The notes under the pieces were generated by a model, which did no database searches, was not told the DNA's origin, and saw only the letters and a list, made by a program, of their open reading frames with translations. The position numbers and the translations under genes were made by a program. Positions 1 through 30,788 of a stretch of DNA of 64,000 nt are shown here, in pieces; the stretch's first letter is position 1, and every line of letters begins with the position of its first letter. Source of the stretch: Mycobacteriales bacterium (GTDB taxonomy: Bacteria > Actinomycetota > Actinomycetes > BP-191); assembly GCA_046590575.1 (NCBI GenBank), contig JBKJUS010000165.1:8635-72634 (forward strand), written 5' to 3'.

Positions 1-492
1 GTCGGCGTCGCCGTGCTGGAGGCCGGCCACCCGGTCACGCGGGGCGCGCTCGGGGGCGGCCTGCAGGGGGGTCAGATCCCGCTGCCCGGAGGCGACCCGC
101 GGTTCCTCGACACGAGCGATCACTACGACACGCTCGAGGCACTCTGCCGAGCGCGGCGCATCGTCGACTACACCCTCGATGCGGGGGGCACCGACCAGAC
201 GGTCGAAGAGGTCTTCGCGGCGTACGCCGCGGGTGCCGCCGCCGCGCAGGCCGGCGTCGAGCGATGGCGCGCCGCCATGGTGCTGGCAGTCCGCGCGCTG
301 GCCAACGCGCACGGCGCCGACGCCGTCGTGGTCGGCGGGGGACCGCTCACGGAGGGTGGCCCGCTGCTGGCTGGCGTCGAGGCGGCGGTGCAGGCACAGC
401 TGTGGCCGACGCACACCCTCGCCGTACGTCGTGCCGCGCTCGGCGACGCAGCCGCACTGCTTGGCCTGGCGGAGCTCCTGGCCCGGCACTGA
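1..492 (+). CDS. ROK-family sugar kinase/regulator, C-terminal part (5' end lies outside the window)
   Basis: The frame is open from base 1 (track ORF 13..492). The C-terminal segment VVVGGGPLTEGGPLL...AALLGLAELL resembles the ROK/glucokinase C-terminus. Stop is TGA 490-492. Confidence 0.5.
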   Translation, partial: VGVAVLEAGHPVTRGALGGGLQGGQIPLPGGDPRFLDTSDHYDTLEALCRARRIVDYTLDAGGTDQTVEEVFAAYAAGAAAAQAGVERWRAAMVLAVRALANAHGADAVVVGGGPLTEGGPLLAGVEAAVQAQLWPTHTLAVRRAALGDAAALLGLAELLARH

Positions 493-652
493 CCACCATT
501 GCCTAGCCTGTGCGGACGGCTTAGGGTCGGTCATCTTAGGATTACAGGTTGCCTGGGTTCCACTACGTGAGCGCGAAACACGGTCGCGCGGCACGATAGG
601 CGGAGGGGCCCACGGGGCGGCGCACCGAGCGAAAGGCGTAGCGGTTTTCCGC

Positions 653-2950
653 ATGACGGCGACGACGGCTCGCGAGATCCCGCGCGACCCCAAGGTGCTC
701 GCGCACGCCCTCTGGGCCGCTGCTCGGCGGCGCAGTGATGTCGTCGCCCTCACCGCCATCGTGGTCAGCACTGTGGTCTTCCCGAGACGCAGCCCGCTTG
801 GCGTCTACGGCCTCGGTGTCGTCACGGGATCGCTGTTCGCTCTCAACGCGATCGGCCTGGTGCTCGTCTACCGCAGCAACCGCATCATCAACTTCGCCCA
901 GGTGGCCGTGGGCGGCGTAGGTGCCACCTTCTTTGCGACGAGTGTGACCTATGAACCGCTGCTGCGGTTCTGCCTGGACAAGGGCGTGTTCGACACCGAG
1001 CCCTCGTGGTTCACCACGGCCAACTACTGGGCCTCAGCAGTCGTCGGGTTGGCGCTGTCGGTGCTGCTCGGCTGGTTGATCCACACCTTCGTCGTACGCC
1101 GATTCGCCGACGCTCCGCGGCTCGTGGCGACCGTGACGACGATTTTCCTCGTGTCGGTCTGCGGCTTGATCAGTCGGGAGATCCGCAGCTCGAAGATCCT
1201 GCGCAGCACGGACCAGATCGAGGCGCAGGTGCAGGTTGGCGCCCCGGATCCGCCGTTCGACATCACGATTGACTTGCCCGGCGTACGACTCACCAGCCGT
1301 GACCTGCTCGCCGTCGGCATTGTCGCCCTCGTGATCCCGCTGCTCACGCTCTACTTCCGCCGGTCCAGCACGGGTGTGGCGATTCGCGCGGCGGCCGACA
1401 ACCCGTCCCGGGTGGCGTCACTTGGCGTCGACGTCAATGTCGTCGTCGGCAAGGTCTGGCTGATAGCCGCCCTGCTCTCCGGGCTCGCAGCCATCCTCAC
1501 CACGATGGGCAGCGGGCCGCCGCCGGACGGCGTCGAGATCAACGTCGGTCTCCTCGTCCGCATCCTTGCGGCGGCGGTGATCGCCCGTCTCGTCAGCCTG
1601 CCGGTGGCCGGGATCGCGGCCATCGGGCTTGGTGTCCTGCAGGAGACGATGCTGTTCTCGTTCGGCACGCCGCTGCTGCTCGACGCGTTCCTCGTCCTGA
1701 TCATCGGCTTGGTGCTCATGCTGCAGCGAATCACCGCCGTGCGGGCCGACGTCGACGTCGCGAGCTCCTGGCGGGCGGCGCGTGAGGTGCGCCCGATCCC
1801 GGGGGAGCTACGCGGCCTTCCCGAAGTCGTGAAGTGGGTGCGCATCGGCGCCTGCAGCGCGGCGGTGCTGGTTCTGGGCGCTCCGTGGGTGCTCTCACCC
1901 AGCCAGACCGACTTGGCGTCCTACGTCCTGATCGCCACCATGATGTTCCTGTCGGTGCTCGTGCTGACCGGCTGGGCCGGCCAGATCAGTCTCGGACAGT
2001 TCGCGTTCGCCGCCATCGGCGCGTGGGTGACCGGCGCATCCGGCTGGCCCTTCCCGGTGGCCGTGGTTGCCGGCGCTGCTGCGGGTGGAGCTGCGGCACT
2101 GGTGGTCGGCATACCCGCGCTCAAGCTGCGCGGTCTCCACCTCGCGATCATGACCCTGGCCTTCAGCCTCGCAGTGACGACGTTCGTGCTGAACCCTCGT
2201 TACCTCGGTAAGCACCTGCCGAGTGACGTCACGCGCCCGTCGCTCCTCGGCATGAATCTCGATGACGGCCGGGTCTTCTTCTACGTCCTCCTTCTGCTGC
2301 TGGTCCTCGTTGCTGGTGCAGTTGCCGGGCTGCGACGTAGCGCCACCGCGAGAGCACTCATCGCGGCCCGCGACAACGAGGCGGCGGCGCAGGGCTTCGG
2401 CATCAACCTGCTGCGGGCGCGGCTTCAGGCGTTTGCCGCCTCCGGGGCGATCGCGGGCTTCGCCGGCTCGTTGCTCGCCTACCAACAGAACTCCGTCATC
2501 CCCGACAGCTTCAGCGCCGCTCAGAGCCTGCAGGTGTTCCTCTACGCCGTGATCGGCGGCCTCGGAGCGGTCAGCGCCCCACTGATCGCCGGCGTCTACT
2601 TCGCGCTGGTCACAGTCCTCGACTTGCCCGCGGACCTCGTCCAGCTGATGACCGGCGCAGGCGGTGTGCTGCTGCTTATGGTGGCGACCGGTGGACTCGC
2701 GCAACTCGTCTTCGACCTGCGCGACAACCTGCTGCGTGGCGTCGCCCGCCGCCGCAAGATCATCGTGCCGAGTCTGCTCGCCGACCAGCGGGACAGCGGG
2801 ATCGGGGAGTCCCGGCTGGCTATCACGCCGAAGCGCCGCCGCGGGGGTGGCACGGAGTTCGTGCCGGCACGCTATCGACTCGACGGCCAGCACGGCATTC
2901 CGGTGCCGGTCAGCCCACCGGGGGAGTCCGTCGCAGGTGCCCGTGGTTGA
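653..2950 (+). CDS. Fused LivH-LivM type ABC permease (branched-chain amino acid / HAAT family)
   Basis: Track ORF 179..2950, trimmed to ATG 653 (MTATTAREIP) just before the first hydrophobic segments. The N half is LivH-like (LVYRSNRIINFAQVAVGG). The C half is LivM-like (GQISLGQFAFAAIGAWV, ARDNEAAAQGFGINL). Many TM segments. Confidence 0.8.
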   Translation: MTATTAREIPRDPKVLAHALWAAARRRSDVVALTAIVVSTVVFPRRSPLGVYGLGVVTGSLFALNAIGLVLVYRSNRIINFAQVAVGGVGATFFATSVTYEPLLRFCLDKGVFDTEPSWFTTANYWASAVVGLALSVLLGWLIHTFVVRRFADAPRLVATVTTIFLVSVCGLISREIRSSKILRSTDQIEAQVQVGAPDPPFDITIDLPGVRLTSRDLLAVGIVALVIPLLTLYFRRSSTGVAIRAAADNPSRVASLGVDVNVVVGKVWLIAALLSGLAAILTTMGSGPPPDGVEINVGLLVRILAAAVIARLVSLPVAGIAAIGLGVLQETMLFSFGTPLLLDAFLVLIIGLVLMLQRITAVRADVDVASSWRAAREVRPIPGELRGLPEVVKWVRIGACSAAVLVLGAPWVLSPSQTDLASYVLIATMMFLSVLVLTGWAGQISLGQFAFAAIGAWVTGASGWPFPVAVVAGAAAGGAAALVVGIPALKLRGLHLAIMTLAFSLAVTTFVLNPRYLGKHLPSDVTRPSLLGMNLDDGRVFFYVLLLLLVLVAGAVAGLRRSATARALIAARDNEAAAQGFGINLLRARLQAFAASGAIAGFAGSLLAYQQNSVIPDSFSAAQSLQVFLYAVIGGLGAVSAPLIAGVYFALVTVLDLPADLVQLMTGAGGVLLLMVATGGLAQLVFDLRDNLLRGVARRRKIIVPSLLADQRDSGIGESRLAITPKRRRGGGTEFVPARYRLDGQHGIPVPVSPPGESVAGARG

Positions 2951-5900
2951 CCTCCGCAACGACCACGAGCTGCAACGAGTCGCCGGCCCGGTGGGTCATG
3001 GGGAGCTGACCCAGCGCCGACTCGTGCCGACCGGTCGGGAGCAGGCTCTCGGCCGATCCGCAGACGTGGTCACGTTCGAATCGACCGTCGAGGTCGACGA
3101 CGTGTCCACCGAGCAGCGGTCGCCGAGGCGTCGGCGGGTCACGTCCTATGTCCGCAACCTCGACCCCCGGCTGGTCGGCGCGCCGCTGTTCCCGATGGTC
3201 GCCATCTCCCTGGTGTCGACGCTGCAGCAGGTCGAGCTGCGAGCCATCGGCCTGTCGCTGCCGGAGATCCGCACGGACACCGGTCTCAGCCTCACCGCGC
3301 TGCTGTTCGCCATCTCGATGCTGTCCTACGGAACGCAGCTCGCGCTGCCGCTTATGGGCTGGCTGGCTGATCGCCGATCGCGCGTGGCCATGATGCGCAT
3401 CGGTGCGGGCCTGGCCGCTGTCGGCAACGTCGTCTTCGCGTTCGGCGGCTCGATCGCGACGCTCGCGCTCGGTCGGTTGGGAGCGGCATCCGGCGACACC
3501 GTGTCGAGACCCGCGGGCTACACCCTGCTGGCCGACCACTACCCGGTGCTCGCGCGAATCCGCATCGTCTTCTTCCTCTTCACGGTCGGCGGGATCCTCA
3601 ACGTCGTCGTGATCGGCACCGCGGGGTTCGCCATCGGGTCGATCGGCTGGCGTCCGGTATTCGTCGCCCTCGGCCTCGTGTACGCCCTGGGTGCATTGCT
3701 GCTGTTGCGGGTGCATGAGGTGCCGCGTGGCTACTGGGAGCGCAAGGGCCTTGGCGCCAGCGAGGAAGTGGCCCGCACGGAGCAGGCGCCGGTCAGCTGG
3801 AAGGAGAGCTGGCGCGCCGCTGCCAGCATCGGGCTTGTCCGCCGACAGTGGATCGCGGCGCCGCTCTTCGGCGTCGTCAACCTCTTCGTCACGCTCTTCG
3901 TCGGCACCTACTTCGCGCAGCGGTACGGACTGACCCCGGGTCAGCGGACCATCATCGAGATCATCAACGCGTCGGCCGTTCTTTTCGGCCTGCTCTTCAT
4001 CGGTCAGCCGCTCGCTCGACTTATCACGACCCGTCCGCGGGTGGTCATAGGTCTGCAGGCGTCCCAAGGCGTGCTCACGACGATTGGCTTCGGCAGCCTG
4101 CTCCTCGCGCCCAACCTGACGGTCTCCGTGGTCATCGTGGCGCTGATGTCGTTGGTCAGCGGCACGGTCTTTCCGCTCCAGCTGGGACTGCTCTCCTTGG
4201 TGATTCCGCCACGCCTGCGCGGCTTCGGCATGCAGACGCTCTACTTCTGGGCAGTGCCGTCCGCGGTGATCTTCGCGGTCATCGGCGGGCAGTCGGCGAC
4301 CCGCGGTCTCGGTCAGACCCTGCTGTTCATGGCGCCCTTCGGCCTTGCTGCGAGCATCGTGCTGCTGACCGCGATGCCCTTAGTCGAGCGGGACATCCGC
4401 GCCGGGCTGCAGGCCAGCCTCGCGGACGAAGAGGCCCGGCTGGCCCGCGCGAGCGGCCGCAACAAGATGCTGATCTGCCGAGGTGTCGACGTCGCCTACA
4501 GCGGTGTGCAGGTGCTCTTCGGCGTCGACCTCGACGTCGAGGAGGGCGAGATCGTCGCGCTGCTCGGCACCAACGGTGCCGGCAAGTCGACGCTGCTGCG
4601 CGCGATTGCCGGGGTGCAGGAAGCGACCGGTGGAGCGATCTTCCTCGACGGCCGTGACATCACCCACGTGCCGCCGCACGAGAACGCCGCGGCGGGAGTG
4701 GTGGTCGTGCCCGGTGGTCACGCCGTGTGCGCCACGTTGACGGTGGAGGAGAACCTGCGCACCGCGGCTTGGTTGCACCGCAAGGACGAAGGCTACGTCG
4801 CGGAGCGACTCGAGCAGGCGCTCACTCTCTTCCCGGCGTTGCGAGCGCGGTTGGGATCCGACGCCGGCAACCTCAGCGGCGGAGAACAGCAGATGCTCGC
4901 CATCGCCCAGTCCTACCTGATGGATCCGCGCTTGCTGATGATTGACGAGCTCTCGCTCGGACTGGCACCGCAGGTGGTCGAGACCTTGCTCGACTCCTTG
5001 CGGGCCATCAACGCCAGCGGCACGACGATCCTGCTGGTCGAGCAGTCGCTGAACGTTGCGCTGACGATCGCCCAGCGCGCCGTCTTCATGGACAAGGGCG
5101 AGGTGCGGTTCGACGGCAGCACCGAAGAGCTGCTTCAACGTCCCGATCTGGTTCGGGCTGTCTTCATGGGGAGCGCCAGCAGCGGCCGCGCGATTCGCCG
5201 TCGCGCCCGGATGCCAGACGCGGAGACCGAGCGGCTGCTCGATGTCGACGGTCTCACGGTGCGCTTCGGCGGCATCAACGCGCTGACTGACGTGTCCCTG
5301 CTCGTTCGGCCGCGGGAGGTGGTCGGGATCATCGGCCCCAATGGCGCAGGCAAGACCACGTTGTTCGACGCCATCTCCGGCCTGACGCCCACCGAGAGCG
5401 GCCGAGTCGTGATCAAGGGTGGTGACGTCACCGCGCTCACCCTGGACGGCCGTGCGGCGGCCGGCCTCGGGCGGTCCTTCCAGAATGCTCGGCTCTTTCC
5501 CTCAATGACTGTCCGAGAGAACATCGCGGTCGGCCTGCATCGACACGTGAAGGCCCGCAATCCGCTGCTGGCCGCGCTGTGGGCCCCGATGGTTCGCGGC
5601 GCAGAAAGGCAGGCCCGCCTGCGAGTGGACGACGCGATCGAACTCCTAGGCCTGCATGCCTACGCCGACAAGTTCGTCGGCGAGCTGTCCACCGGCACCC
5701 GTCGAGCCGTCGACATCGCCGCCATCATGATGGCCAGTCCAGACGTGCTGCTTCTCGACGAGCCGTCATCCGGCCTTGCACAGGCCGAGACCGAGGCGCT
5801 GGGACCGATGATCCTGCGACTCGTTCGTGAGACGGGCTGCGGTGTGCTGATGATTGAGCACGACCTCCCGCTCGTCACCGGCGTCGCCGACCGGTTGATC

Positions 5901-6110
5901 GCGATGGAGCTCGGTCAGATCATCGCCATGGGCGCGCCGGACGAGGTCATGCGTGACCCTGAGGTGCGTCGTGCCTACCTCTCGGCCTCCAAGGAAGTTC
6001 TGCTCCGGTCCGGCAGCGTCCTCGGTGCCGCTCTCGCCGCTGCGGGCCTGGCTACGAATCCACCCCCTGCTGACGCACCCGTGCTTCGCACCACCATCGA
6101 GAGGACCTGA
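2937..6110 (+). CDS. Single ORF fusing an MFS-type membrane domain with LivF-like and LivG-like ABC ATPase domains
   Basis: Track ORF 2664..6110. GTG 2937 overlaps the upstream stop (2948-2950); the start is uncertain. MFS motif A-like GWLADRRSRVAMMRIG and WRPVFVALGLV. NBD1: GEIVALLGTNGAGKSTLL, LSGGEQQMLAIA, LLMIDELSLGLAP. NBD2: GIIGPNGAGKTTLF, LSTGTRRAVDIA, LLLDEPSSGLA. No stop codon lies between the three modules. Confidence 0.75.
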   Translation: MPVVDLRNDHELQRVAGPVGHGELTQRRLVPTGREQALGRSADVVTFESTVEVDDVSTEQRSPRRRRVTSYVRNLDPRLVGAPLFPMVAISLVSTLQQVELRAIGLSLPEIRTDTGLSLTALLFAISMLSYGTQLALPLMGWLADRRSRVAMMRIGAGLAAVGNVVFAFGGSIATLALGRLGAASGDTVSRPAGYTLLADHYPVLARIRIVFFLFTVGGILNVVVIGTAGFAIGSIGWRPVFVALGLVYALGALLLLRVHEVPRGYWERKGLGASEEVARTEQAPVSWKESWRAAASIGLVRRQWIAAPLFGVVNLFVTLFVGTYFAQRYGLTPGQRTIIEIINASAVLFGLLFIGQPLARLITTRPRVVIGLQASQGVLTTIGFGSLLLAPNLTVSVVIVALMSLVSGTVFPLQLGLLSLVIPPRLRGFGMQTLYFWAVPSAVIFAVIGGQSATRGLGQTLLFMAPFGLAASIVLLTAMPLVERDIRAGLQASLADEEARLARASGRNKMLICRGVDVAYSGVQVLFGVDLDVEEGEIVALLGTNGAGKSTLLRAIAGVQEATGGAIFLDGRDITHVPPHENAAAGVVVVPGGHAVCATLTVEENLRTAAWLHRKDEGYVAERLEQALTLFPALRARLGSDAGNLSGGEQQMLAIAQSYLMDPRLLMIDELSLGLAPQVVETLLDSLRAINASGTTILLVEQSLNVALTIAQRAVFMDKGEVRFDGSTEELLQRPDLVRAVFMGSASSGRAIRRRARMPDAETERLLDVDGLTVRFGGINALTDVSLLVRPREVVGIIGPNGAGKTTLFDAISGLTPTESGRVVIKGGDVTALTLDGRAAAGLGRSFQNARLFPSMTVRENIAVGLHRHVKARNPLLAALWAPMVRGAERQARLRVDDAIELLGLHAYADKFVGELSTGTRRAVDIAAIMMASPDVLLLDEPSSGLAQAETEALGPMILRLVRETGCGVLMIEHDLPLVTGVADRLIAMELGQIIAMGAPDEVMRDPEVRRAYLSASKEVLLRSGSVLGAALAAAGLATNPPPADAPVLRTTIERT

Positions 6111-6111
6111 G

Positions 6112-7152
6112 ATGGCTAGCCCGCGCTCTGTCGGAGCCCGTTCACGGCGTACGCCGAAATCGCGCGAAGAGTTCGCGACGACCTTCGAGGCGATGGTGCA
6201 GAACATCGGCAAGGTCATCAAGGGCAAGGACGACATGATCCGGCTCACGCTGACCGCGATCGTCGCCAATGGCCATGTTCTCTTCGAGGACCTTCCGGGC
6301 ACCGGCAAGACAATGCTCGCCCGCGCGATCGCCAAGACAATCGACGCCGAGCAGAACCGGATCCAGTGCACTCCCGACCTGCTGCCCGCCGACATCACCG
6401 GGTCGCCGGTGCTCGATCGGCGTACCGGTGACTTCGTCTTCCGCCCGGGGCCGATCTTCGCCAACATCTTCCTGTCTGACGAGATCAACCGCGCGTCGCC
6501 CAAGACGCAGGCGGCGATGCTCGAGGCGATGCAGGAGCGCAACGTCACAGTCGACGGGGTGAGCTATCCGCTGCCCCGCCCGTTCTTCGTCCTCGCCACG
6601 CAGAACCCCGTCGAGCAAGCCGGCACGTTCCCACTTCCCGAAGCGCAGCTCGACCGGTTCCTGTTCAAACTCTCGCTCGGCTACCCGGCGCGCCTGTCGG
6701 AGATGGATGTGCTGCTGACCAACCGCACGTCAGAGCCGATCGATGACCTCGGACCAGTCATTGACAAGGACGGCGTGGTGGAGCTCATGCGGTGGGCCGA
6801 CGAGGTGTCGGTCAGCGAGTCGGTGATGCTCTACATCATCGATCTCACCCAGGCTTCGAGGAGCGACCCGGCGTTGTCGGTCGGCGCCAGCCCGCGCGCG
6901 TCGCTGGCCCTCATGCGAGCAGCCCGGGTGCGGGCTTCGTCGCAGGGCCGCGATGACGTGCTTCCCGACGACGTCAAGTCCCTAGCCATGGCCGTGATGG
7001 CGCACCGGGTGATCCTCACTCCCGACTCCATGCTGCGGGAGGAGACCGTCGAGGCAGTCACCGAGCGGATCATCAACAAGGTCAAGGTGCCGACTGGGTT
7101 GGGCGCAACGGTCGAGTCGCCCGACCAAGCGCTCGCCGCTGCGGTCTCCTAG
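6112..7152 (+). CDS. MoxR-family AAA+ ATPase
   Basis: ATG 6112 lies 1 nt after the upstream TGA, with GAGAGGA upstream. Walker A LPGTGKTMLARAIA. LLPADITG. Walker B IFLSDEINRASPKTQAAMLEAMQE. Typical AAA_3/MoxR layout. Confidence 0.9.
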   Translation: MASPRSVGARSRRTPKSREEFATTFEAMVQNIGKVIKGKDDMIRLTLTAIVANGHVLFEDLPGTGKTMLARAIAKTIDAEQNRIQCTPDLLPADITGSPVLDRRTGDFVFRPGPIFANIFLSDEINRASPKTQAAMLEAMQERNVTVDGVSYPLPRPFFVLATQNPVEQAGTFPLPEAQLDRFLFKLSLGYPARLSEMDVLLTNRTSEPIDDLGPVIDKDGVVELMRWADEVSVSESVMLYIIDLTQASRSDPALSVGASPRASLALMRAARVRASSQGRDDVLPDDVKSLAMAVMAHRVILTPDSMLREETVEAVTERIINKVKVPTGLGATVESPDQALAAAVS

Positions 7153-7171
7153 GACCCGGCGACTCGACGCT

Positions 7172-8473
7172 ATGGCGATCGCGGTGGCACCGGCGAGAGG
7201 GACGGCGCGCGCTCTGGCAGCGCGCGGCTCCGGTCTGACCCGTGCCATCGAGCGGCGTACCGGCCTCACATCAACAGGCATCTACGTTCTACTGCTCGCC
7301 GGTGCGCTGTTCGTCGTCGCTCGACTGCTCGGCAACCAAGCGCTCTTCATGCTCACCTACGGCGCCTTCGTCGTCATCGGTCTCGCCTACGTCCTCGCCC
7401 GTCGCAAGCTCTCGGTGGAGACGCGTCGTTCGCAGCTGCCGACGCGGGTGCGCCAGGGTCAGATCATCACGGTGCAGCTCGGGCTGAAGGCCCGGCGCAA
7501 GGTCAACACCGTCGTCCTGGAGGAGGTGCTCGACGAGCACCTCGGCGCGACCGTCCGGCTACCTGTCGCGGTCCTGCCAGCTGGCGAGGAAGTCACCCAC
7601 GAGTACAGCTTCACGCCGCGGCTGCGCGGCGTCTACACCGTGGGTCCGCTTGTCGCGAGCTGGAGCGATCCGTTCGGGCTGACCCGCAAGACCGAGATCC
7701 TGAGCCCGGCCGCCGAGCTGATCGTGCACCCGCGCACGGAGTCGGCGCAGGACCGAGTGCTCAGCCGCGAGTGGGAGGACCCGCCGGTCCGTCCACCGAT
7801 CACGAAGCCGTGGCCGAGCGGCTACGAGTTCTACGGACTGCGCGACTACGTCAGTGGCGACGACCCGCGGCGCATCGTCTGGCGGGCTACGGCGCGGACC
7901 TTGGACCTCGACACCGGGCAAGGCCGCTATTTGGTGCGCGAGTCGGAGCAGGGCATCACCGACCGCGTCTCAATCCTGCTCGATAGCGGAAAGGCCGACC
8001 ACAGCCCCGGCGACCCGAGCGAGACGTTCGAGACCGCGGTGCGCGTCGCCGCGTCCCTCGCGACGCGCCACCTCAAGGACGGCTTCACAGTCACCACCCA
8101 CGTCAACAGCCAGCAGCTGCTCCGGCCAATGCGCAGCCAACGGGACGGCATCAGGCTCCTCGATGAGTTGGCGCGGCTGCAGCCTGAGCCGGAGCGGCTG
8201 ACCGGCGCGGTCGAGCGAATCCTGCGTAACACCCGACGGGACACGCACATCGCGGTGATCGCGCCGCACCTCGACCAGGCGGCGACTGGGCGGATCAAGC
8301 TGCTGATCGACCGGGGTGTCTCGGTGGTGCTCGTGCTCGTTGTCTGGGAGCAGACCGATCCGATCTCGCTGCACCGCGCTGGACAGCTCGGCTGCAACAT
8401 CGTCGAGGTCAACGCCTCCTCCTCACTCGAGGCGGTCTTCCGCACCGTCATCTCCCAGGCCGGCCGCCGATGA
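7172..8473 (+). CDS. DUF58 domain-containing protein (MoxR partner, vWA-like)
   Basis: N-terminal TM pair. DUF58 signature GLRDYVSGDDPRRIVWRATART. Sits directly downstream of MoxR. Confidence 0.85.
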   Translation: MAIAVAPARGTARALAARGSGLTRAIERRTGLTSTGIYVLLLAGALFVVARLLGNQALFMLTYGAFVVIGLAYVLARRKLSVETRRSQLPTRVRQGQIITVQLGLKARRKVNTVVLEEVLDEHLGATVRLPVAVLPAGEEVTHEYSFTPRLRGVYTVGPLVASWSDPFGLTRKTEILSPAAELIVHPRTESAQDRVLSREWEDPPVRPPITKPWPSGYEFYGLRDYVSGDDPRRIVWRATARTLDLDTGQGRYLVRESEQGITDRVSILLDSGKADHSPGDPSETFETAVRVAASLATRHLKDGFTVTTHVNSQQLLRPMRSQRDGIRLLDELARLQPEPERLTGAVERILRNTRRDTHIAVIAPHLDQAATGRIKLLIDRGVSVVLVLVVWEQTDPISLHRAGQLGCNIVEVNASSSLEAVFRTVISQAGRR

Positions 8474-9006
8474 CGATGCTCAGCGATCGCCCGCCCGCGG
8501 CCGGCGGCATCGACCCAGTCCTCACCGACCCAGACACCGGCGCGACATCGGTCGATGACGAAACGGCCGATCGCCCGGTCGGCATCATGCTCACCTGCGC
8601 CGCGGTGCTCCTCTCGTCTGCTGCGGCGGCGTGGATGCTCGCCGGGATCTTCCAAGGCGTGCTGCCCAAGGTGATGGCCTTGGCTGCCGCAGCGGCCGGT
8701 CCCGGCCTAGTTGCGGCGTCGTACCGGACGCGCCGTCCGGCAGTTGTGCAGTACCTCGCGCTGCCGCTGGCACTCGCCGCCGGCGCCGCGGTCGTCGTCC
8801 CCGCCACCACCGGCGGTTCGGCCAACTTGCCCAGCCTGGTCGTGGAGGCGGTGCGCGGGGGTGGGCTGAGCCAGCCGCCGGTGCCCTTCGAGCCGGGCTG
8901 GCGCTTTTTGCTCGTCGTACTCGTCTCCTTGCTCGGTGTCGGCGCGGCCGCGCTGACACCGCCCTCGACAAACCCCGACTCGGCATCGCGGTGCCTCTTC
9001 CGGTAG
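8470..9006 (+). CDS. Polytopic membrane segment resembling the N-terminal (DUF3488-like) part of TgpA-type transglutaminase proteins; either a separate small gene or the 5' fragment of a frame-broken gene
   Basis: ATGA overlap with the DUF58 stop (8470-8473). 178 aa with 4-5 hydrophobic helices. The reading frame ends at TAG 9004-9006, while the hydrophobic pattern continues in another frame. Confidence 0.55.
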   Translation: MTMLSDRPPAAGGIDPVLTDPDTGATSVDDETADRPVGIMLTCAAVLLSSAAAAWMLAGIFQGVLPKVMALAAAAAGPGLVAASYRTRRPAVVQYLALPLALAAGAAVVVPATTGGSANLPSLVVEAVRGGGLSQPPVPFEPGWRFLLVVLVSLLGVGAAALTPPSTNPDSASRCLFR

Positions 9007-11405
9007 TCGTCGCGGCCGCCCTGGTGCAGCCGCCCAGCAGCGCCGTGACCGCCAGCATCGTGGCGATGGTGCTGCTCGTTGCTGCGCTCGTGCTGTCCTC
9101 GGGTGCCCAGCTGATGCAGGACGGTTCCTCGTCGGGGGCGTTCGAGACGCGGCGGCTGCTTCGCGGTCTCGGTGGCCTGACAGTGCTGGCCGTGGCTCTC
9201 GGTGGGGTGAGTCAGGCTGGCTTCCTCTTCCCGGCGCAGCCGGCCGAGCGGGTCATCCCACCGAAGCGTCCGCAGGCGCAGCCACCGCTGTCCGACCGGG
9301 TGCTCTTCACAGTCGAGTCAGCCGATCCTGGACCCTGGCGATTCGGCGTCATCGACGTCTACGACGAGACCGCGTGGTTGCTCCCGCCGCTCGACCGTTC
9401 CCGGTTCGTCGCGGTGCCTGGGTCCGGCAGCCTCGCTGAAGCGGTCGCCGACCGCGCCGAGCGGCCGGACGACGGCCCCGCCGCGATTCCCGCGACGCCG
9501 ACGGGGACGCGCACGCTGACGTTCGAGGTCGGCGACCTGCCCGGTCGCGTGCTGCCGACGGTCGAGGGTCAGATCACCGTCCGCGAGGACAGCGTCGACC
9601 TGGAGCTCGACCCGCGCACCCAGACCCTCCGATCAGGAAAGGGGCGGGCCGCCCTCGGCGGCAGCTACACCGTCACCGCCGCGATCCCGCCCTCGGCGAC
9701 GGACCTCGCTGCGATCTCGGCCGACCTTCCTCGCTCGCTCGATCCGTTCCTCGCGGCACCTGAGCCGCCGTCCGACGTCAGCGCGCTCCTGGCCGCAGCG
9801 CCCCAGGCGCCGTTCGAACGACTGCAGTTCGTCCGTAACGCGCTCTACGCCAAGGTCGTCGCCGCGGGGGAGGGCACTCCCATCGACGTCCCGCCCGCGC
9901 GCGTGGCGGAGCTGCTCAGCGGCGCCGAGGCGACTCCGTACGAGATCACGGCCGCGGAGGCGCTGCTCACCCGCTGGGCCGGGGTGCCTTCGCGCATCGG
10001 CTTCGGGTTCTACTCGGGCACCAGAACCGCCGATGGTGGCGCCTTCGAGGTGCACCCGCGGGACGGGGCCACCTGGCTCGAGGCCTACTTCGAGGGACCG
10101 GGCTGGATCACGATCGTCGGTCGACCACCGAGGGCGAAGGCGAGCACCGACCTCAATCAGAAGAACCAGGACCCGCAGCTGCGAGCCAGCGAGGACCTCG
10201 CGCTCGTCGTGCGGGTGCCGGTCGAGCTGGCAAACCTGCGGCAGCTCTATGACGACATCCGTTTCTACCTGCTCGTCTCGTTGCCATGGGTGCTACTTGT
10301 TGTGCTCGGGATCGTCTTCTACCCCGCCGCCTTGAAGGTCGTACGACGATGGCGCCGTCGCCGGTGGGCTCGTGACCGCGGTCTGCCGGCGCGGGTGCTC
10401 GTCACGTATGCCGAGATGCGTGACCGGCTGCGAGACGTCAACGCGCCTGACCCCTCAGCCACGCCGTTGGAGTTCGTGTCCTCCGTCGACTTCGACGAGG
10501 AGCACTGGGAGCTTGCCTGGCTGACGACGCGGGCACTGTGGGGCGACCTACGGCGCGACCTGCGGCTCGAAGACGTCGAGGCGGCCGAGGACATGGCTCG
10601 ATCGGTGACCCAACGCGTGCTGCGCGCGCAGCGAAGCGTCCCGCGTGCCCTCGGGCAAGCGTCCCGAGTCTCCCTGCGCGACCCCTTCACTCGCGACGTT
10701 CCTAACGCGTGGCCATCCGGTGACCGCGCCCGACGCGTGCGTGCGCAGTCGCGCCGGGTCAGCCCCTTCCGCCTTGGTCGAGCTGTGCTCCCGGCCCTTC
10801 GGGCAATGACGCCCAGTCGTGTGCTGCGCATGCGTCGAGGTGCCCCAGGCAGCGCTGTGATGATCCTGCTGATCGTAGTGATGACCCTGGTCACCGGCTG
10901 CAGCGGCGGCTCGCCGGGGTCGGCCGCTCCGTCGCTGCCGGAGAACCTGGTGCCCGACGAGATCGGTGAGTTTCGGTTGCAGCGGGAGCCGACAGCGGAA
11001 GCGAAGTTCACCGAGGTCGGTGACGCCGCGCTCGTCACCGGGGGTCGCGTCTACACAGTCCGGCGGGACGGCGAAGTGCTCGGCTCACTGCAGGCGGCAA
11101 CCTTCAAGGACTCGGTGCGGGGCAACCTGAAGAAGGTGCAGAAGGGCTTGCGGGCCAGCATCGGCACGGGTGACTTCACGCTGCAGCGCATCGGCACCGA
11201 ACCGGTCTACGTCCTGCAGCAGAACGAGTTGAAGATCCTGCTGTGGTTCCCGCCTGGAGGCGGCTACTACGAGATGCTCGACGCCAGGCAGGGATTCGAC
11301 GAAGCCGAGCGGGTCTTCCTGGCGATCTTGAACTTCCAGCGCGGCCGTCCGGTCGGGCTCGACGCCGACACCGCTGTCGTCGACATCCGCCGTGGAGGCG
11401 ACTGA
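8991..11405 (+). CDS. Transglutaminase-like (catalytically degenerate) / DUF4129-like membrane protein with an in-frame C-terminal lipoprotein-like module
   Basis: Frame of track ORF 8631..11405; first plausible start is GTG 8991. TGase-core-like LLTRWAGVPSRIGFGFYSG...ATWLEAYFEGPGWITIV. A TM helix, then DUF4129-like TPLEFVSSVDFDEEHWELAWL. From 10806 there is a signal/lipobox-like MTPSRVLRMRRGAPGSAVMILLIVVMTLVTGCSGG. Confidence 0.6.
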   Translation: MPLPVVVAAALVQPPSSAVTASIVAMVLLVAALVLSSGAQLMQDGSSSGAFETRRLLRGLGGLTVLAVALGGVSQAGFLFPAQPAERVIPPKRPQAQPPLSDRVLFTVESADPGPWRFGVIDVYDETAWLLPPLDRSRFVAVPGSGSLAEAVADRAERPDDGPAAIPATPTGTRTLTFEVGDLPGRVLPTVEGQITVREDSVDLELDPRTQTLRSGKGRAALGGSYTVTAAIPPSATDLAAISADLPRSLDPFLAAPEPPSDVSALLAAAPQAPFERLQFVRNALYAKVVAAGEGTPIDVPPARVAELLSGAEATPYEITAAEALLTRWAGVPSRIGFGFYSGTRTADGGAFEVHPRDGATWLEAYFEGPGWITIVGRPPRAKASTDLNQKNQDPQLRASEDLALVVRVPVELANLRQLYDDIRFYLLVSLPWVLLVVLGIVFYPAALKVVRRWRRRRWARDRGLPARVLVTYAEMRDRLRDVNAPDPSATPLEFVSSVDFDEEHWELAWLTTRALWGDLRRDLRLEDVEAAEDMARSVTQRVLRAQRSVPRALGQASRVSLRDPFTRDVPNAWPSGDRARRVRAQSRRVSPFRLGRAVLPALRAMTPSRVLRMRRGAPGSAVMILLIVVMTLVTGCSGGSPGSAAPSLPENLVPDEIGEFRLQREPTAEAKFTEVGDAALVTGGRVYTVRRDGEVLGSLQAATFKDSVRGNLKKVQKGLRASIGTGDFTLQRIGTEPVYVLQQNELKILLWFPPGGGYYEMLDARQGFDEAERVFLAILNFQRGRPVGLDADTAVVDIRRGGD

Positions 11406-11406
11406 C

Positions 11407-12495
11407 ATGTCCCGTCTGACGCGCGCCGCTGCGGCGCTCGCTCTCGCTGCACTTGTCGGGTGCTCTCCGCCGACGTCGGTGTCGGTCGGCGTGAAGGACC
11501 TCTCGACCGACATCGAGTTCAGCCGCGCTGACGCCACTCCCGTTCCGGTAGTTGCGCCGCCTCCGGTCACCGGAGTCCCTGGCTTCCCGATCGCACCGCT
11601 GCCGCCCAACGTGGTGCAGCCGGGCGGACCGGTCGTGGTAGCGCTGCCGCCTGACCTGCCGCCGCCAGCCCCGCTGCCGAACACCTGCCCGAAGGCGAGC
11701 CCGCTGGTGGCGGCGAAGAACGCGAACACCCCGCGACCTGGCGCGCCGCCGGTCGCCGCGTCCTACCGCTATCGGCTCTCGGGGAGCTTCACGGTCACGG
11801 GTGCGCATCCGGCGAGCGGCGTCTACCCGGCGACGTCCGTGCGTGGGATCCGCGATGTTCAGGAGATCGCCGGTGGAGGTGGCTACGAGTTCTTCATCAG
11901 CGACGACATGGGGATGGACGTCGGCTACACCGTCATCCCGGAGCAGCGAGCGGCACCGCAGAACCCAGTGGGCGTGGGGGAGCAGCCAACTCCGGTTGAA
12001 GCCGGCATCTATGTGAACGGGTTCACCTACCGGCGGGCGGACGGCACCACGCTGAGTCTGCGGCCACAACCTTTCGTGATGATCGCCAAGCTGCCGCTCG
12101 CTCCCGGTGACAAGTGGCAGTCCAAGGGCGTCGACCCGGCCACTGGCGTCAGTGTCATCGTCAACGGCCAGACCGGGCTGGGGGAGGAGTTCTCCCCGAG
12201 CCGCGACCGGGTCGACGCGTGCGGCACGGTGCTCGACGCGACGTGGGTCGAATACACCGTGGACACCACGCCGTTGACGGGTGCGACGGCTGACGAAGAG
12301 CCGCCATCATCCATCGTTGGCGGCGGTCTCGGGATCCAGTTCGTCGGCACGCGACTCGCCTTCGCCAACCAGTACGGCGGACTGCCCATCCACGAAGTGG
12401 TGCGCCTGGTCGGGGTGGACGGTGCCGACACCGTCGACATCACCCGCGAGGCAGTCATCCTGTCGGAACCAGCGCTTGCCGCGGCGCCCTCGTGA
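11407..12495 (+). CDS. Lipoprotein with proline-rich linker, unknown function
   Basis: ATG 11407 lies 1 nt after the upstream TGA, with GGAGG 9 nt upstream. Signal plus lipobox MSRLTRAAAALALAALVGCS. A Pro-rich tract precedes a globular domain. Confidence 0.7.
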   Translation: MSRLTRAAAALALAALVGCSPPTSVSVGVKDLSTDIEFSRADATPVPVVAPPPVTGVPGFPIAPLPPNVVQPGGPVVVALPPDLPPPAPLPNTCPKASPLVAAKNANTPRPGAPPVAASYRYRLSGSFTVTGAHPASGVYPATSVRGIRDVQEIAGGGGYEFFISDDMGMDVGYTVIPEQRAAPQNPVGVGEQPTPVEAGIYVNGFTYRRADGTTLSLRPQPFVMIAKLPLAPGDKWQSKGVDPATGVSVIVNGQTGLGEEFSPSRDRVDACGTVLDATWVEYTVDTTPLTGATADEEPPSSIVGGGLGIQFVGTRLAFANQYGGLPIHEVVRLVGVDGADTVDITREAVILSEPALAAAPS

Positions 12496-14192
12496 GCAAG
12501 CTGCCTTCCACAGAGCGGAGACGTCGTCGCGTATGTGTGGTGACTCTCGTCATGATCACCGCGAGTGGATGCTTCGGCGGCGCGACATCTGATCCCGCAC
12601 CGATTCCCTCCTCGCTGCCGGGGGTGGCCGCTGGCGGTGAGCTGGTTGTCGGCATAGTCACTCCGGTTTCGATTGACCCCGCGCTGGTGACGCCCACCGA
12701 TGTCGGCGGCACCACCGTCGTGCGCACGATGTGCGACTCACTGCTATCGCTGGACCCGGCAGAGTCGGTTCTGCGGCCGTCGATCGTTGAGTCCTGGCGA
12801 GTGCTGGAGGGGGGCGAGCGGATCGCGTTGCGGCTGCGGGACGATGTCCGTTTCTCCAATGGCGATCGGTTGAGCGCGCAGGACGTTGCCGCGTCTCTTG
12901 CCCGCGTCGTCTCGCCGGACACTGTGTCGCCGGTGGCGAATCAGCTGGAGCGAATCCTCGGCTTCACCGCACTTCGCGAGCGCAAGGTTGAGCGGGACGA
13001 TCTCGCTGGGATCCAGGTCGTCAGCTCACGTGACCTCGAGCTGGTGATCTCCCCTCGGGACGCGCAGTACGTGAACCTGCTCGCGAGCACCCTCGCGGTG
13101 CCGGTCCCCCGCAAAGCGGCGGATGACGCAGCGTTCTCTGCGCGACCGATCTGCGCCGGGCCGTATGTTCTGACGGCTCCCTGGCAAACTGGCGAGCCGA
13201 CGATCATGCTCGAACGTTCGAGTCGGTACTTTTCCGGCAACACCGCCGTGACTCGCGGCGGTGCCGGCTGGGCCGACCGCATCATCTTCAAGCTCTACCC
13301 ATCTCGGGAGAAGGCAGAGGAGGCCTTCCGACGCGGCGACGTCGACGTCGCCCCGCTGGCCAACGACCGGCTCGCGGCGGCCGCCGCGATCCCGGGTGCA
13401 GCGATCGAGACGCGCCCTACCGGCACCCTGGAATACGTCGGACTGCCGACGACGACGGCGCCCTTTGACAACCCCGATGTACGCCGCGCGTTGAGCCAGG
13501 CGTTGGACCGCTCGCGGATCGCGAAAACGGTCTACGTGGGCGGCCGAGTGCCGGCCACGTCACTGCTGCCCACCAACCTGCCCGACCGGCTTGTCGACCA
13601 CGGGGTGTGTGCCGGAGCGGCGCCTGTCGACGGTGATCGCGAAGCCGCCCGTCGGTCTCTGGCCAAGTCCGGGGTGTCGCTGGAAGGCGTCACCGTGCCG
13701 CTCTACTTCAACGATGAGTTTCGCAACCGAGCCCTGATGATCGAGGTGGCCGCGCAGTGGCGGTCCGCTTTCGGACTGCGCACCCGTTTGGTGCCGCTTC
13801 CATTCGACAGTTACGTCGGACGAGGAACCGGCGGCACCGGCTTCGATGGACCCTTTCGGCTCGCCTTCGCTGCGCCGTACCTCGACGCGGGGGAGTTCTT
13901 CGGTCCACTGTTCTCGACCGACGCGATCGGGACCGACAACTTCAGTCGGTTCTCCAGTCCGCGGTTCGACCGGGATCTCCGCCGAGAAGCGCGTCAGGCC
14001 ATCGCCATCGAAGATCAACGGGCGGAGTACGCCGCGCTGCATCAGCTCTTGTGCACCCAGCTGCCGGTGATCCCGGTCGTGCTCGGCACGGCGAGTTACA
14101 TCGTGCGGTCCAGCGTCGTGGCCTCGGCGACGGGGCGGGTGGTCGACAGGGCAACGGCGACACCACTTCTCCGAGAGCTCTACCTCCGGTGA
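12492..14192 (+). CDS. ABC transporter substrate-binding lipoprotein, family 5 (Dpp/Opp/nickel type)
   Basis: GTGA overlap with the upstream stop. Lipobox ITASGCFGG. Family-5 SBP-like segment ERIALRLRDDVRFSNGDRLSAQDVAASLARV. About 560 aa. Confidence 0.75.
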   Translation: MSKLPSTERRRRRVCVVTLVMITASGCFGGATSDPAPIPSSLPGVAAGGELVVGIVTPVSIDPALVTPTDVGGTTVVRTMCDSLLSLDPAESVLRPSIVESWRVLEGGERIALRLRDDVRFSNGDRLSAQDVAASLARVVSPDTVSPVANQLERILGFTALRERKVERDDLAGIQVVSSRDLELVISPRDAQYVNLLASTLAVPVPRKAADDAAFSARPICAGPYVLTAPWQTGEPTIMLERSSRYFSGNTAVTRGGAGWADRIIFKLYPSREKAEEAFRRGDVDVAPLANDRLAAAAAIPGAAIETRPTGTLEYVGLPTTTAPFDNPDVRRALSQALDRSRIAKTVYVGGRVPATSLLPTNLPDRLVDHGVCAGAAPVDGDREAARRSLAKSGVSLEGVTVPLYFNDEFRNRALMIEVAAQWRSAFGLRTRLVPLPFDSYVGRGTGGTGFDGPFRLAFAAPYLDAGEFFGPLFSTDAIGTDNFSRFSSPRFDRDLRREARQAIAIEDQRAEYAALHQLLCTQLPVIPVVLGTASYIVRSSVVASATGRVVDRATATPLLRELYLR

Positions 14193-18836: not shown

Positions 18837-18855
18837 TTCTTCGCCGGGCCGACCG

Positions 18856-21949: not shown

Positions 21950-23647
21950 GTGCCAGCCACGCAGCGCAGTGCTCGACGGCCCCGCGGACCCGGCATCGTC
22001 TACTCGGTCACTGCTTGTGTCGTCGTGCTCGCCCTGGGCGCGGTTGCCCTCTCTGCCGACCAGGCGCCGCCTCCCACGGTCGCCGAGTTTGCTCCTGCGG
22101 CCCTTGACCAGATCGAGGAGGCGCCCGATCGCCAGGGCACCGATGTCGGCGAAGGGGAGGCCGGTGGGGAGGGCAGCTCGAGTGCAGCTCCCACGGCGAG
22201 TCCGAGCGCCAGCGCCTCGGCGACGGCGGCGGTGGCTGCGCCGGTCATCGATGTCAACCGCACCCGCAAGTGCGTCGGCAACCCAGGACGGCAGACCGAG
22301 GACCCGCAGTCACCGCCCTGTGTGCCCTTCTTCGACGGTGACAACGGTGGCGCGACCGCACCTGGCGTCACGCGCGACGAGATCCGGGTCGTGCTGCCGT
22401 ACGGCAACTTCCTGTCCTCGACCACACCCGCGGACTACCAGATCCTGGCGAGCTTCTTCAATACCCGCTACGAGTTCTACGGGCGCAAGATCCGGCTGCT
22501 CCCGTTCGTGGCTCGCGGTGACAACTTCGCCAACCCCAACCCGCCCGACATGATCGCCGATGCCGCGCGCGTGGCGAACGAGTTCAAGGCCTTTGCTTCT
22601 CTGGGATACACCGACCGTCGGGGCGCAGAGCACACCTACTACGACGAGCTCGCCCGCCGGAAGATCATCGCTGTGATCGGCGGCACCGCCGCAGTCGCGA
22701 CGGAGGAGCACCTTCGGGCGCGGGCGCCGTACCAGTGGTCACGGTCGATGGCGACAGACACGCTGCTCCGCAATCTCGGCCAGCTCACCTGCGCCCAGCT
22801 GGTCGGCAAGGCGCCGACGTACGGCGGCCCCTTCCCCTTTGTGCCGCAACCCACTGTGCGCAAGCTCGGCATCATGACGACCCGGGCGCCGGACGGCACG
22901 ATCCCGGACATCGCGCCACTTCAGGCGGCGCTCGCTGGGTGTGGCGAGCGGCCGTTCAGCATCGAGGCGCCCTACGCCGAGGATGCCCGGGCCGGGCTCA
23001 ACCCGGTGATCCAGATGAAGGACCAGCAGGTCACATCGATCCTCTGTATCTGCGACCTGGGCTCGATCCGCAACAGCTACATGCCGTCGGCGGAGAGCCA
23101 GGGTTACAACCCCGAGTGGGTGCTCTCGAGCTACAACGGCAACGACGGAGACAACTCCTACGCACAGGCGCCGCCGGCGCAGGCGCGTCGCGTCTTCGGC
23201 GTCTCGGTCGCCAACAAGACCCAGCGCAACCAGGACCATCCCTGGTTCTGGGCCTACCGTGAGGCCGGCCCGACCCGCACACCGCCGAGCGGCGCCGCGG
23301 GCTATGCCATGACCGGCATCTACAGCGTCATGTCACTCGTTGCCGCGGGTATCCAGATGGCGGGTCCCAACCTGACACCGGAGACCTTCGCGGCGGCGCT
23401 GCAGCGCACCGTTTTTCCCAACCCCGGCGCGGGCGCCGCGCCGTTTTACCAGTCGGCCATCGGGTTTGCGGGTGGCACGCACTCGATGGTGAAGGACACG
23501 GCGATGTACTGGTACGACGCCGCGCAGCAGGGGACGGTCGACCCGGCGTCGCCGGGTGCTGTCTGTTACGTACGGCGCGGCGAGCGATTCGGTCTGGGCG
23601 AGTGGCCGAAGCGTGAGCCGGAGTTTCGGCAGGGTCCGTGCCGATAA
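21950..23647 (+). CDS. Secreted type-1 periplasmic-binding-fold (LivK/Peripla_BP_6-like) solute-binding protein
   Basis: Track ORF 21188..23647, trimmed to GTG 21950 with GGAGGAG 6-12 nt upstream. A hydrophobic anchor/signal, then a Ser/Ala/Gly linker. Segments such as IRVVLPYGN...FKAFASLGYTD...IIAVIGG resemble Leu/Ile/Val-type SBPs. Confidence 0.45.
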   Translation: MPATQRSARRPRGPGIVYSVTACVVVLALGAVALSADQAPPPTVAEFAPAALDQIEEAPDRQGTDVGEGEAGGEGSSSAAPTASPSASASATAAVAAPVIDVNRTRKCVGNPGRQTEDPQSPPCVPFFDGDNGGATAPGVTRDEIRVVLPYGNFLSSTTPADYQILASFFNTRYEFYGRKIRLLPFVARGDNFANPNPPDMIADAARVANEFKAFASLGYTDRRGAEHTYYDELARRKIIAVIGGTAAVATEEHLRARAPYQWSRSMATDTLLRNLGQLTCAQLVGKAPTYGGPFPFVPQPTVRKLGIMTTRAPDGTIPDIAPLQAALAGCGERPFSIEAPYAEDARAGLNPVIQMKDQQVTSILCICDLGSIRNSYMPSAESQGYNPEWVLSSYNGNDGDNSYAQAPPAQARRVFGVSVANKTQRNQDHPWFWAYREAGPTRTPPSGAAGYAMTGIYSVMSLVAAGIQMAGPNLTPETFAAALQRTVFPNPGAGAAPFYQSAIGFAGGTHSMVKDTAMYWYDAAQQGTVDPASPGAVCYVRRGERFGLGEWPKREPEFRQGPCR

Positions 23648-30585: not shown

Positions 30586-30788
30586 GGTGAACCAGCATTC
30601 GTGACGTCGACCGAGTCGGTCTCACCACTGGCTCCCCGCTGCCGCGGCTGGTGACCGGGGACGGCAGCGGATCTTCGCCTCTCGGACGCTGATGACCACG
30701 ATGACCGCGTCGCGGTCCCTCGCCCATGGTCACTTGGAGTGAATTATGGATAGCCTGACCTAACCGGACGGTCATGATCATCATCCAC

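Follow-up and report, generated by a model that had tools for sequence, protein, structure and literature searches.

An MFS domain fused to the LivF-LivG ATPases of a putative Liv-type ABC importer in uncultured actinobacteria

The major facilitator superfamily (MFS) and the ATP-binding cassette (ABC) superfamily are the two largest transporter superfamilies and are treated as alternatives, the former driven by gradients and the latter by ATP. In a stretch of 64,000 nt from a Mycobacteriales bacterium (assembly GCA_046590575.1, contig JBKJUS010000165.1, positions 8,635 to 72,634; in the following, the window), a single reading frame joins an MFS domain to two ABC nucleotide-binding domains (NBDs) that resemble LivF and LivG. 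The locus raises the question of what a secondary carrier does on the ATPase subunit of an importer. The reading preferred here, which is held with about even confidence, is that of a binding-protein-dependent Liv-type importer with a working MFS module, the state of which would be coupled to the ATPase. The core of the system is encoded by two genes:

653..2950, plus strand: fused LivH-LivM permease gene, 765 aa, matching Pfam BPD_transp_2 in two stretches (E 4.4e-50)
2937..6110, plus strand: fusion gene MFS-LivF-LivG, 1057 aa plus stop, with a 14-nt overlap with the permease stop

The fusion gene is contained in an open frame at 2664..6110 (plus strand). The probable start, GTG 2937, is preceded by GGGGGAG at a distance of 10 nt and brings the gene into overlap with the stop codon of the upstream gene (TGA 2948-2950). 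The DNA has a GC content of 69%, at which long open reading frames are common. The GC content at third codon positions (GC3) is 0.79-0.92 in a single frame from ~2900 to 5900 and 0.81-0.91 in the own frame of the permease gene, and the GC3 frame switches exactly at the two gene boundaries. Since GC3 is continuous in one frame, the fusion gene contains no hidden frameshift; domain matches, frame signal and conserved homologues identify 2937..6110 as a gene beyond a chance open reading frame. A database copy (P0001) also has 1057 aa and matches the window protein with 100% identity and coverage. The locus contains one genuine gene that encodes a single chain. A first-pass annotation of the window had described one frame at 2937-6110 with the order MFS-LivF-LivG, and this description is borne out by Pfam, NCBIfam, GC3 and the length of P0001.

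It is highly improbable that a lost stop codon or a frameshift created the chain, or that initiation at ATG 4467 yields a separate MFS protein and ATPase. Relatives from metagenome bins do contain frameshifts: the fusion or binding-protein gene is broken across frames in L006 (5567-11718), L007 (6890-11729) and L008 (6956-9965), where assembly indel errors are probably the cause and not pseudogene formation. What looks like a split in L008, however, is due to a frameshift ahead of the junction, which is itself intact, and dozens of divergent sequences obtained independently in different projects read through the junction in frame. A sequencing or assembly artefact, including the missing stop codon considered in the first-pass annotation, is ruled out by the continuous one-frame GC3 and by the conservation of the fusion in many divergent homologues. 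An in-frame ATG is present at the start of NBD1, but homologues do not share its Met511 and no Shine-Dalgarno sequence precedes it, which argues against internal initiation. The same fusion recurs among the loci examined, and no genuine split into an MFS gene beside livF was found there.

The layout of the chain was derived from Pfam, NCBIfam and Foldseek matches and from AlphaFold2 (AF2) models, for which the predicted local distance difference test (pLDDT) and the predicted template modelling score (pTM) are given:

2937..3158, plus strand: N-terminal cytoplasmic extension, aa 1-74, predicted disordered and fast-evolving
3159..4373, plus strand: Spinster-like MFS domain, aa 75-479, with 12 transmembrane (TM) helices (Pfam MFS_1)
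4374..4463, plus strand: helical linker, aa 480-509 (AF2 helix at 480-505), with conserved residues
4464..5171, plus strand: NBD1, a LivF/UrtE-like ATPase, aa 510-745 (Pfam, NCBIfam, Foldseek)
5172..5231, plus strand: disordered linker between the NBDs, aa 746-765 (AF2 pLDDT <50 at aa 743-763)
5232..5987, plus strand: NBD2, a LivG-like ATPase with a BCA_ABC_TP_C tail, aa 766-1017 (Pfam, NCBIfam)
5988..6110, plus strand: disordered, poorly conserved C-terminal tail (AF2 pLDDT <50 at aa 1015-1057) and stop codon TGA 6108-6110

The N-terminal domain scores 87.9 bits against MFS_1 (gathering threshold 33.4; aa 94-435, profile positions 5-335 of 347), so that its proposed MFS identity stood up in the profile search by a wide margin. 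Pfam further finds two ABC_tran matches in the protein and BCA_ABC_TP_C at aa 994-1015 (33.2 bits, cut-off 25.5). In NCBIfam, the first NBD is best matched by the UrtE/LivF models (aa 510-745) and the second by the LivG model (aa 764-1016). The motifs quoted in the first-pass annotation (GWLADRRSRVAMMRIG, WRPVFVALGLV, GTNGAGKST, LSGGEQQ, LLMIDELS, GPNGAGKTT, LSTGTRR and LLLDEPSS) are all present in the translation. A canonical layout of 6+6 helices is found in both AF2 models, with helices at aa 85-115, 119-144, 149-168, 173-201, 204-236 and 239-258 in the first half and, after a loop, at aa 299-330, 334-365, 367-390, 394-422, 425-451 and 458-477 in the second. A hydropathy scan agrees with these 12 helices.

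At the profile level, the MFS domain appears to be a member of the Spinster family (Transporter Classification, TC, 2.A.1.49; HnSpns, SPNS1, SPNS2). With a profile of 10 family members, HnSpns (6e8j, 1.2e-24) and human SPNS1 (6.2e-21) are the best solved relatives; the single MFS sequence of the window matched no solved structure. Shared with HnSpns and SPNS1 are the TM1 acid, GwLaDRxxR, the RxG motif of TM4, DyYP...R, GWR, and EPPRGxxE after helix 6. Motif A reads GWLADRRSR (aa 141-149), and its Asp145, Arg146 and Arg149 are invariant in 14 as well as in 129 homologues. In HnSpns, Asp41, Arg122 and Glu129 form the proton-switch network, and Asp87-Arg91-Asp142 form the charge relay of motif A (PMC9440201). 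Asp41 aligns to Glu100 (acidic in at least 94% of the 129 homologues), Arg122 to Arg180 (kept in 98%), and Glu129 to Asp187, which is Asp throughout the clade of the window protein; the relay residues align to the invariant Asp145, Arg149 and Asp200. What sets the window domain apart from the Spinster proteins is its C-terminal fusion to two ABC ATPase domains and the lack of an equivalent of Arg42; the arginine of the TM1 DR pair is replaced by Leu101.

Selection on the individual modules was estimated as dN/dS (ratio of nonsynonymous to synonymous substitution rates) against the 87% identical orthologue in L010. The values are 0.10 for the MFS domain, 0.10 for LivH, 0.08 for LivM, 0.06 for NBD1 and 0.11 for NBD2, and 0.46 and 0.72 for the N-terminal extension and the C-terminal tail. 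Purifying selection on the MFS domain matches in strength that on LivH and LivM. From its residues and conservation it looks like a functional and complete Spinster-like carrier module.

The attachment of this module to the first ATPase is best seen in the AF2 model of the MFS-LivF unit (aa 60-750; 129 sequences), which reaches a pLDDT of 89 and a pTM of 0.84. The full-length model (14 sequences; pLDDT 74, pTM 0.60) is disordered at aa 1-62, 743-763, 869-886 and 1015-1057. TM12 is predicted to extend without a break, as helix aa 480-505, up to the first strand of NBD1, and in the 129-sequence model the linker has a mean pLDDT of 84-93 in blocks of 10 residues. Asp486 of the linker is invariant and Arg504 is kept in 98% of the 129-sequence alignment. 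A pTM of 0.84 would be unreachable if domains of 420 and 240 aa were placed independently, which indicates that the mutual orientation of MFS and NBD1 is confidently fixed in the model. Foldseek returned partial matches only and no solved structure with the whole architecture.

These features bear on the possibility that the MFS part is an independent passenger, that is, an autonomous proton-driven carrier (e.g. for product export or uptake of a second substrate) that was fused for co-expression or co-localisation and has no cross-talk with the importer. Close stand-alone relatives in non-Liv contexts and the retained proton-network residues would fit such a passenger, and fusions of pathway partners are common. 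It is distinctly unlikely nevertheless: the continuous TM12-NBD1 helix and the high pTM suggest a fixed geometry, the two linker residues are conserved across subfamilies, and the restriction to LivF as partner with the MFS domain always N-terminal is more specific than co-expression would need.

The upstream gene has two BPD_transp_2 domains and is therefore a fusion of LivH and LivM, in agreement with the fused permease reported earlier for this position; its predicted role is to supply the transmembrane domains of an ABC importer. No solved structure matches this permease. A LivH-LivM gene is located immediately upstream of the fusion gene in L001, L002, L003, L004, L006-L008 and L010, and the two genes overlap or abut at every locus examined. 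In the window, L001/L005 (80% identity to the window fusion), L010 (87%), L003 (56%) and L004 (50%), the order is LivHM, fusion gene (with overlapping stop and start) and a MoxR-DUF58-transglutaminase group. In L002 (37%) and L006-L008 (~26-28% in the MFS domain), LivHM and the fusion gene are followed by a gene for a Peripla_BP_6 binding protein. A shorter form that consists of the MFS domain and one NBD (MFS-F; P0011 to P0015) is followed by an overlapping gene that encodes LivH-LivM-LivG in one chain of 926-949 aa, with a Peripla_BP_6 gene nearby in two of four loci (L012 and the locus of P0012).

LivG is thus encoded either on the MFS-LivF chain or on the LivHM chain and must in both cases pair with the MFS-tethered LivF. 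Since, in addition, no further NBD genes accompany LivHM at the loci examined, the MFS domain would sit in the LivHM complex, and most likely all five modules form one complex. The two chains would then constitute a two-polypeptide, five-module importer of the Liv (HAAT) type, in which the LivF-LivG dimer powers LivH-LivM as in usual Liv-type importers and a Peripla_BP_6 homologue encoded at 21950..23647 delivers the substrate. The Spinster-type module, tied to LivF by the continuous helix and present at a 1:1 stoichiometry, could still switch between inward and outward states. It would act as a working accessory carrier or sensor and would not be the ATP-driven path itself. The state of the MFS module would affect the ATPase cycle and vice versa, in the form of cross-regulation or by coupling two transport steps of one pathway.

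A more specific proposal is that the Spinster-type module and LivF-LivG are mechanically coupled, so that ATP gates or drives the rocker-switch or the proton-driven MFS state gates the ATPase; this is possible but doubtful. Hybrid energisation in the strict sense, in which closure and opening of LivF-LivG drive or gate the MFS rocker-switch as an ATP-powered path, alone or beside LivHM, is improbable. A membrane domain followed by a helix from the last TM segment into an NBD is the layout of an ABC half-transporter, and the model is highly confident of how MFS and NBD1 are oriented. Secondary carriers can become ATP-driven, as ArsB does with ArsA. Here, however, a single helix tethers just one of the NBDs; the full LivH-LivM permease, which is always present without other ATPase genes, needs these NBDs for itself; the MFS domain keeps proton-coupling residues of its own; and no structural match to any ATP-driven MFS was obtained. 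LplT-Aas is an MFS protein fused to a cytoplasmic partner. A Sensor Kinase-MFS fusion family (TC 2.A.1.34) has been listed (PMC3924187). Along with ArsB/ArsA, these are conceptual precedents from unrelated families, none of which has an ABC NBD on an MFS domain.

Several points weigh against an importer with a working and coupled MFS module. P0010, a relative without the MFS domain that carries LivH, LivM, LivF and LivG in one chain of 1326 aa, shows that the Liv machine can do without it. The substrate-binding Arg42 of HnSpns is replaced by Leu101, and the equivalent of Glu129 is Lys in most MFS-F proteins, so that proton coupling may not be general. At greater distance the MFS domain diverges faster than the permease (34% identity to L003, against 46% for LivH and 62% for LivM). 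The rigid MFS-NBD1 geometry is a reading of a single model score, the pTM, and coupling across it would be hypothetical. Finally, 15 kb separate the candidate binding-protein gene from the operon, and its product is not recognised by Pfam when searched alone.

The MFS-less relative, the lost arginine, the variable Glu129 position and the rank of the MFS domain as the fastest-diverging structured module at long range would also suit a passive anchor or scaffold, in which the MFS domain no longer transports and merely holds LivF-LivG at the membrane or aids assembly with LivHM. Such a role is unlikely. The gating motifs of MFS carriers, among them motif A with PxRLRGxG as its counterpart in the second half, the arginine of TM4 and the buried acid of TM1, are all invariant across subfamilies at ~21-30% identity of the MFS domain, the dN/dS of 0.10 is that of the true permease domains, and 12 helices would be a costly anchor for NBDs that already dock on LivHM. 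Of the functions suggested in the first-pass annotation (a regulatory or scaffolding domain, or hybrid energisation), a dead scaffold is disfavoured by the evidence, which is compatible with both regulation and direct energisation and also with an uncoupled passenger.

P0010 also bears on the order of the ATPases. The first-pass annotation had called the order reversed relative to livG-livF; F does precede G here, but this is not an oddity. As the H-M-F-G chain of P0010 lacks the MFS domain, F-then-G is normal for this actinobacterial Liv subfamily and the MFS domain is an accessory to it. Outside the fusion family, no closer NBDs were found than those of P0010 (47% identity); the difference is that all four modules are joined there and no MFS domain is present.

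The sequence features of the NBDs lead to the same subfamily. NBD1 has Walker A GTNGAGKS, signature LSGGEQQ, Walker B LLMIDEL and PGG at the Q-loop position; NBD2 has Walker A GPNGAGKT, signature LSTGTRR and Walker B LLLDEP. Canonical LivF and UrtE carry Glu or Gln at this Q-loop position (PEG, PQG). The PGG residues (aa 592-594; 4710-4718, plus strand) are invariant across the fusion family. P0010 likewise carries PGG, Walker B IDEL and the LivG signature LSTGTRR, which rules these features out as specific to the fusion; they may be the hallmark of a subfamily in which one ATP site is asymmetric or degenerate. The best Foldseek match of NBD1 is 1ji0, a Thermotoga ABC ATPase (42% identity, target-normalised TM-score 0.91).

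At the domain level, the system resembles E. coli LivJ/K-LivHMGF of the HAAT family (TC 3.A.1.4): both have two BPD_transp_2 domains, a LivG-like NBD with BCA_ABC_TP_C and a LivF-like NBD, and Peripla_BP_6 binding proteins are seen in related loci. It differs from E. coli Liv in the distribution of the core modules over two chains (H-M and F-G), in the 12-helix MFS domain before LivF, in the F-then-G order, and in unusually large binding proteins of ~450-590 aa. Further differences are PGG in place of the canonical PEG, Walker B IDEL and the LivG signature LSTGTRR. Most NCBIfam equivalog cut-offs are missed. The LivG model scores 321 bits (cut-off 362) and LivF 260.6 (441), while the permease matches are far below their cut-offs with 82.3 (366) for LivM, 37.5 (379) for LivH, 50.6 (250.3) for UrtB and 52.7 (296.2) for UrtC. 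UrtD reaches 292.4 (304.1). UrtE alone passes with 316.7 (285.8), a whole-protein score that sums the two NBD matches, and a UrtBCDE urea transporter was rejected on the failure of the other three models. By its domains, as judged from these profiles, the system belongs to the HAAT/Liv family, but it is not the Liv orthologue. Because all these cut-offs fail save that of the summed UrtE, neither branched-chain amino acids nor urea should be assumed as substrate.

The best structural matches of the full-length model in Foldseek are the tandem-NBD subunits of M. tuberculosis DppABCD and OppABCD (8wdb_D, 8j5q_D). These actinobacterial importer subunits likewise combine two ABC ATPase domains on one polypeptide. 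Their family, however, is that of the peptide/nickel importers; they lack a membrane domain and match the NBD half only, with a query TM-score of at most 0.34.

The architecture is not restricted to the window. The chain MFS-F-G recurs in P0002 to P0008, with identities from 87% down to 37%. An MFS-only profile was searched against 1.84 billion representative proteins and returned 1205 proteins at E<1e-30. Domain calls on the best 150 of these (representatives at 50% clustering) gave ~41 proteins with MFS-F-G, ~43 with MFS-F, some of which are truncated, and 63 with the MFS domain only. The MFS-LivF version, which pairs with a LivH-LivM-LivG chain, accounts for at least 284 clusters in a second search (E<1e-40); the 120 best-scoring of these all contain PF07690 and PF00005 and are 650-776 aa in length. 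In all fusions among the architectures called, the MFS domain occupies the N-terminus and is joined to LivF. The organism names attached are solely those of metagenome bins of Acidimicrobiia, Acidimicrobiales and Actinomycetota; likewise, a profile search of genome contigs with a narrower MFS alignment gave four loci, all from metagenome bins.

Two stand-alone relatives of the MFS domain are ordinary autonomous MFS genes, from which it follows that the module derives from autonomous transporters. P0102 is located beside MarR and ABC exporter genes. P0212 (425 aa; L014 1-10317) is located among peptidase genes (M3, S10, TldD/PmbA and two of S9), a context that weakly hints at peptides or amino-acid derivatives as substrates of this MFS subfamily. 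In a neighbour-joining order of the MFS domains, stand-alone, F and F-G forms are interspersed; this order is too crude to count the origins of the fusion.

The judgement of the first-pass annotation that the arrangement is unusual holds. In full-text searches, the coverage of which excludes subscription journals, no paper on an MFS domain fused to ABC nucleotide-binding domains was found. The architecture is already present in databases, though unstudied, under automatic names such as the JGI name 'ABC-type branched-subunit amino acid transport system ATPase component/predicted MFS family arabinose efflux permease'; a machine of its own is concealed behind labels like 'MFS transporter' or 'branched-chain amino acid ATPase'. 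Here a whole Spinster-like MFS domain under selection would be permanently built into an ABC importer through a conserved helix on one of its ATPases; proteins of this arrangement fill hundreds of clusters and come from actinobacteria that are abundant but uncultured. If MFS and ATPase communicate, the system would be a natural case of cross-regulation or hybrid energisation and would represent a new regulatory principle of ABC importers. If mechanical coupling applies, it would be a hybrid of primary and secondary transporter with an energy-coupling mode undescribed for either superfamily. Even if there is no cross-talk, it would be a clear case of two hard-wired transport steps of one pathway.

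Outside the structured modules, the chain is less conserved. The linker between the NBDs has just 50% identity to P0002. The N-terminal extension (AF2 pLDDT <50 for aa 1-62) contains a conserved motif within its disordered sequence, LVPTxRExxLGR (aa 29-40; 3021-3056, plus strand), which is found in the window protein and in P0002 to P0006 but not in more remote relatives, and which may serve for docking or be phosphorylated.

No binding-protein gene lies beside the operon in the window, and no other LivH/LivM genes were found there. The following gene is located further downstream:

21950..23647, plus strand: candidate binding protein of ~565 aa, a divergent Peripla_BP_6 relative, with start GTG 21950 and GGAGGA upstream

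The encoded protein has an N-terminal hydrophobic anchor or signal sequence and an Ala/Ser/Gly-rich linker. In phmmer it matches the binding protein that follows the fusion gene in L002 (2.2e-28) and the 557-aa product of the gene that immediately precedes the permease in L004 (1.3e-162). Peripla_BP_6 matches two of four aligned homologues (best E 6.9e-09) and not the window member; binding proteins of this family adjoin the system in L002, L006-L008, L012 and the locus of P0012. No solved structure matches the candidates. From these similarities, the product of 21950..23647 probably serves the transporter.

The fusion gene is directly followed by:

6112..7152, plus strand: MoxR AAA+ ATPase gene (Pfam AAA_3, E 3.1e-61), with ATG 6112 and GAGAGGA upstream

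It begins 1 nt past the fusion stop and heads the MoxR-DUF58-transglutaminase operon; the same neighbour is present in L001, L003, L004 and L010. The apparent downstream operon (6112-14192, plus strand) comprises MoxR, DUF58, a TgpA-like transglutaminase (8631..11405), a 367-aa protein and an SBP_bac_5 protein (12492..14192). No promoter-like or terminator-like sites were found on the plus strand in window positions 400-7300. By position, MoxR is apparently co-operonic with the fusion gene, either through a functional tie or as mere inherited synteny. The linkage persists down to 50% identity, and more distant loci have a binding-protein gene in its place.

Rfam gave no riboswitch near the operon. 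Its sole match, 24 kb away and unrelated to the transporter, is a c-di-GMP-II aptamer of the GAG variant (30605-30691, minus strand; 70.8 bits, gathering threshold 40, full model length). Just upstream of the transporter operon, a gene for a ROK-family regulator ends (1-492, plus strand). Genes for a SASA esterase and for DUF5005/DUF4185 proteins are found at 16618-20946 (minus strand). L001 (1-7604) and L010 (1-5458) carry DUF4432, FAA hydrolase, short-chain dehydrogenase and gluconolactonase-like genes, to which L001 alone adds an enolase-superfamily (MR_MLE) gene. As far as their families indicate, the genes near the operons in the window, L001 and L010 are typical of sugar and sugar-acid catabolism and of glycan trimming.

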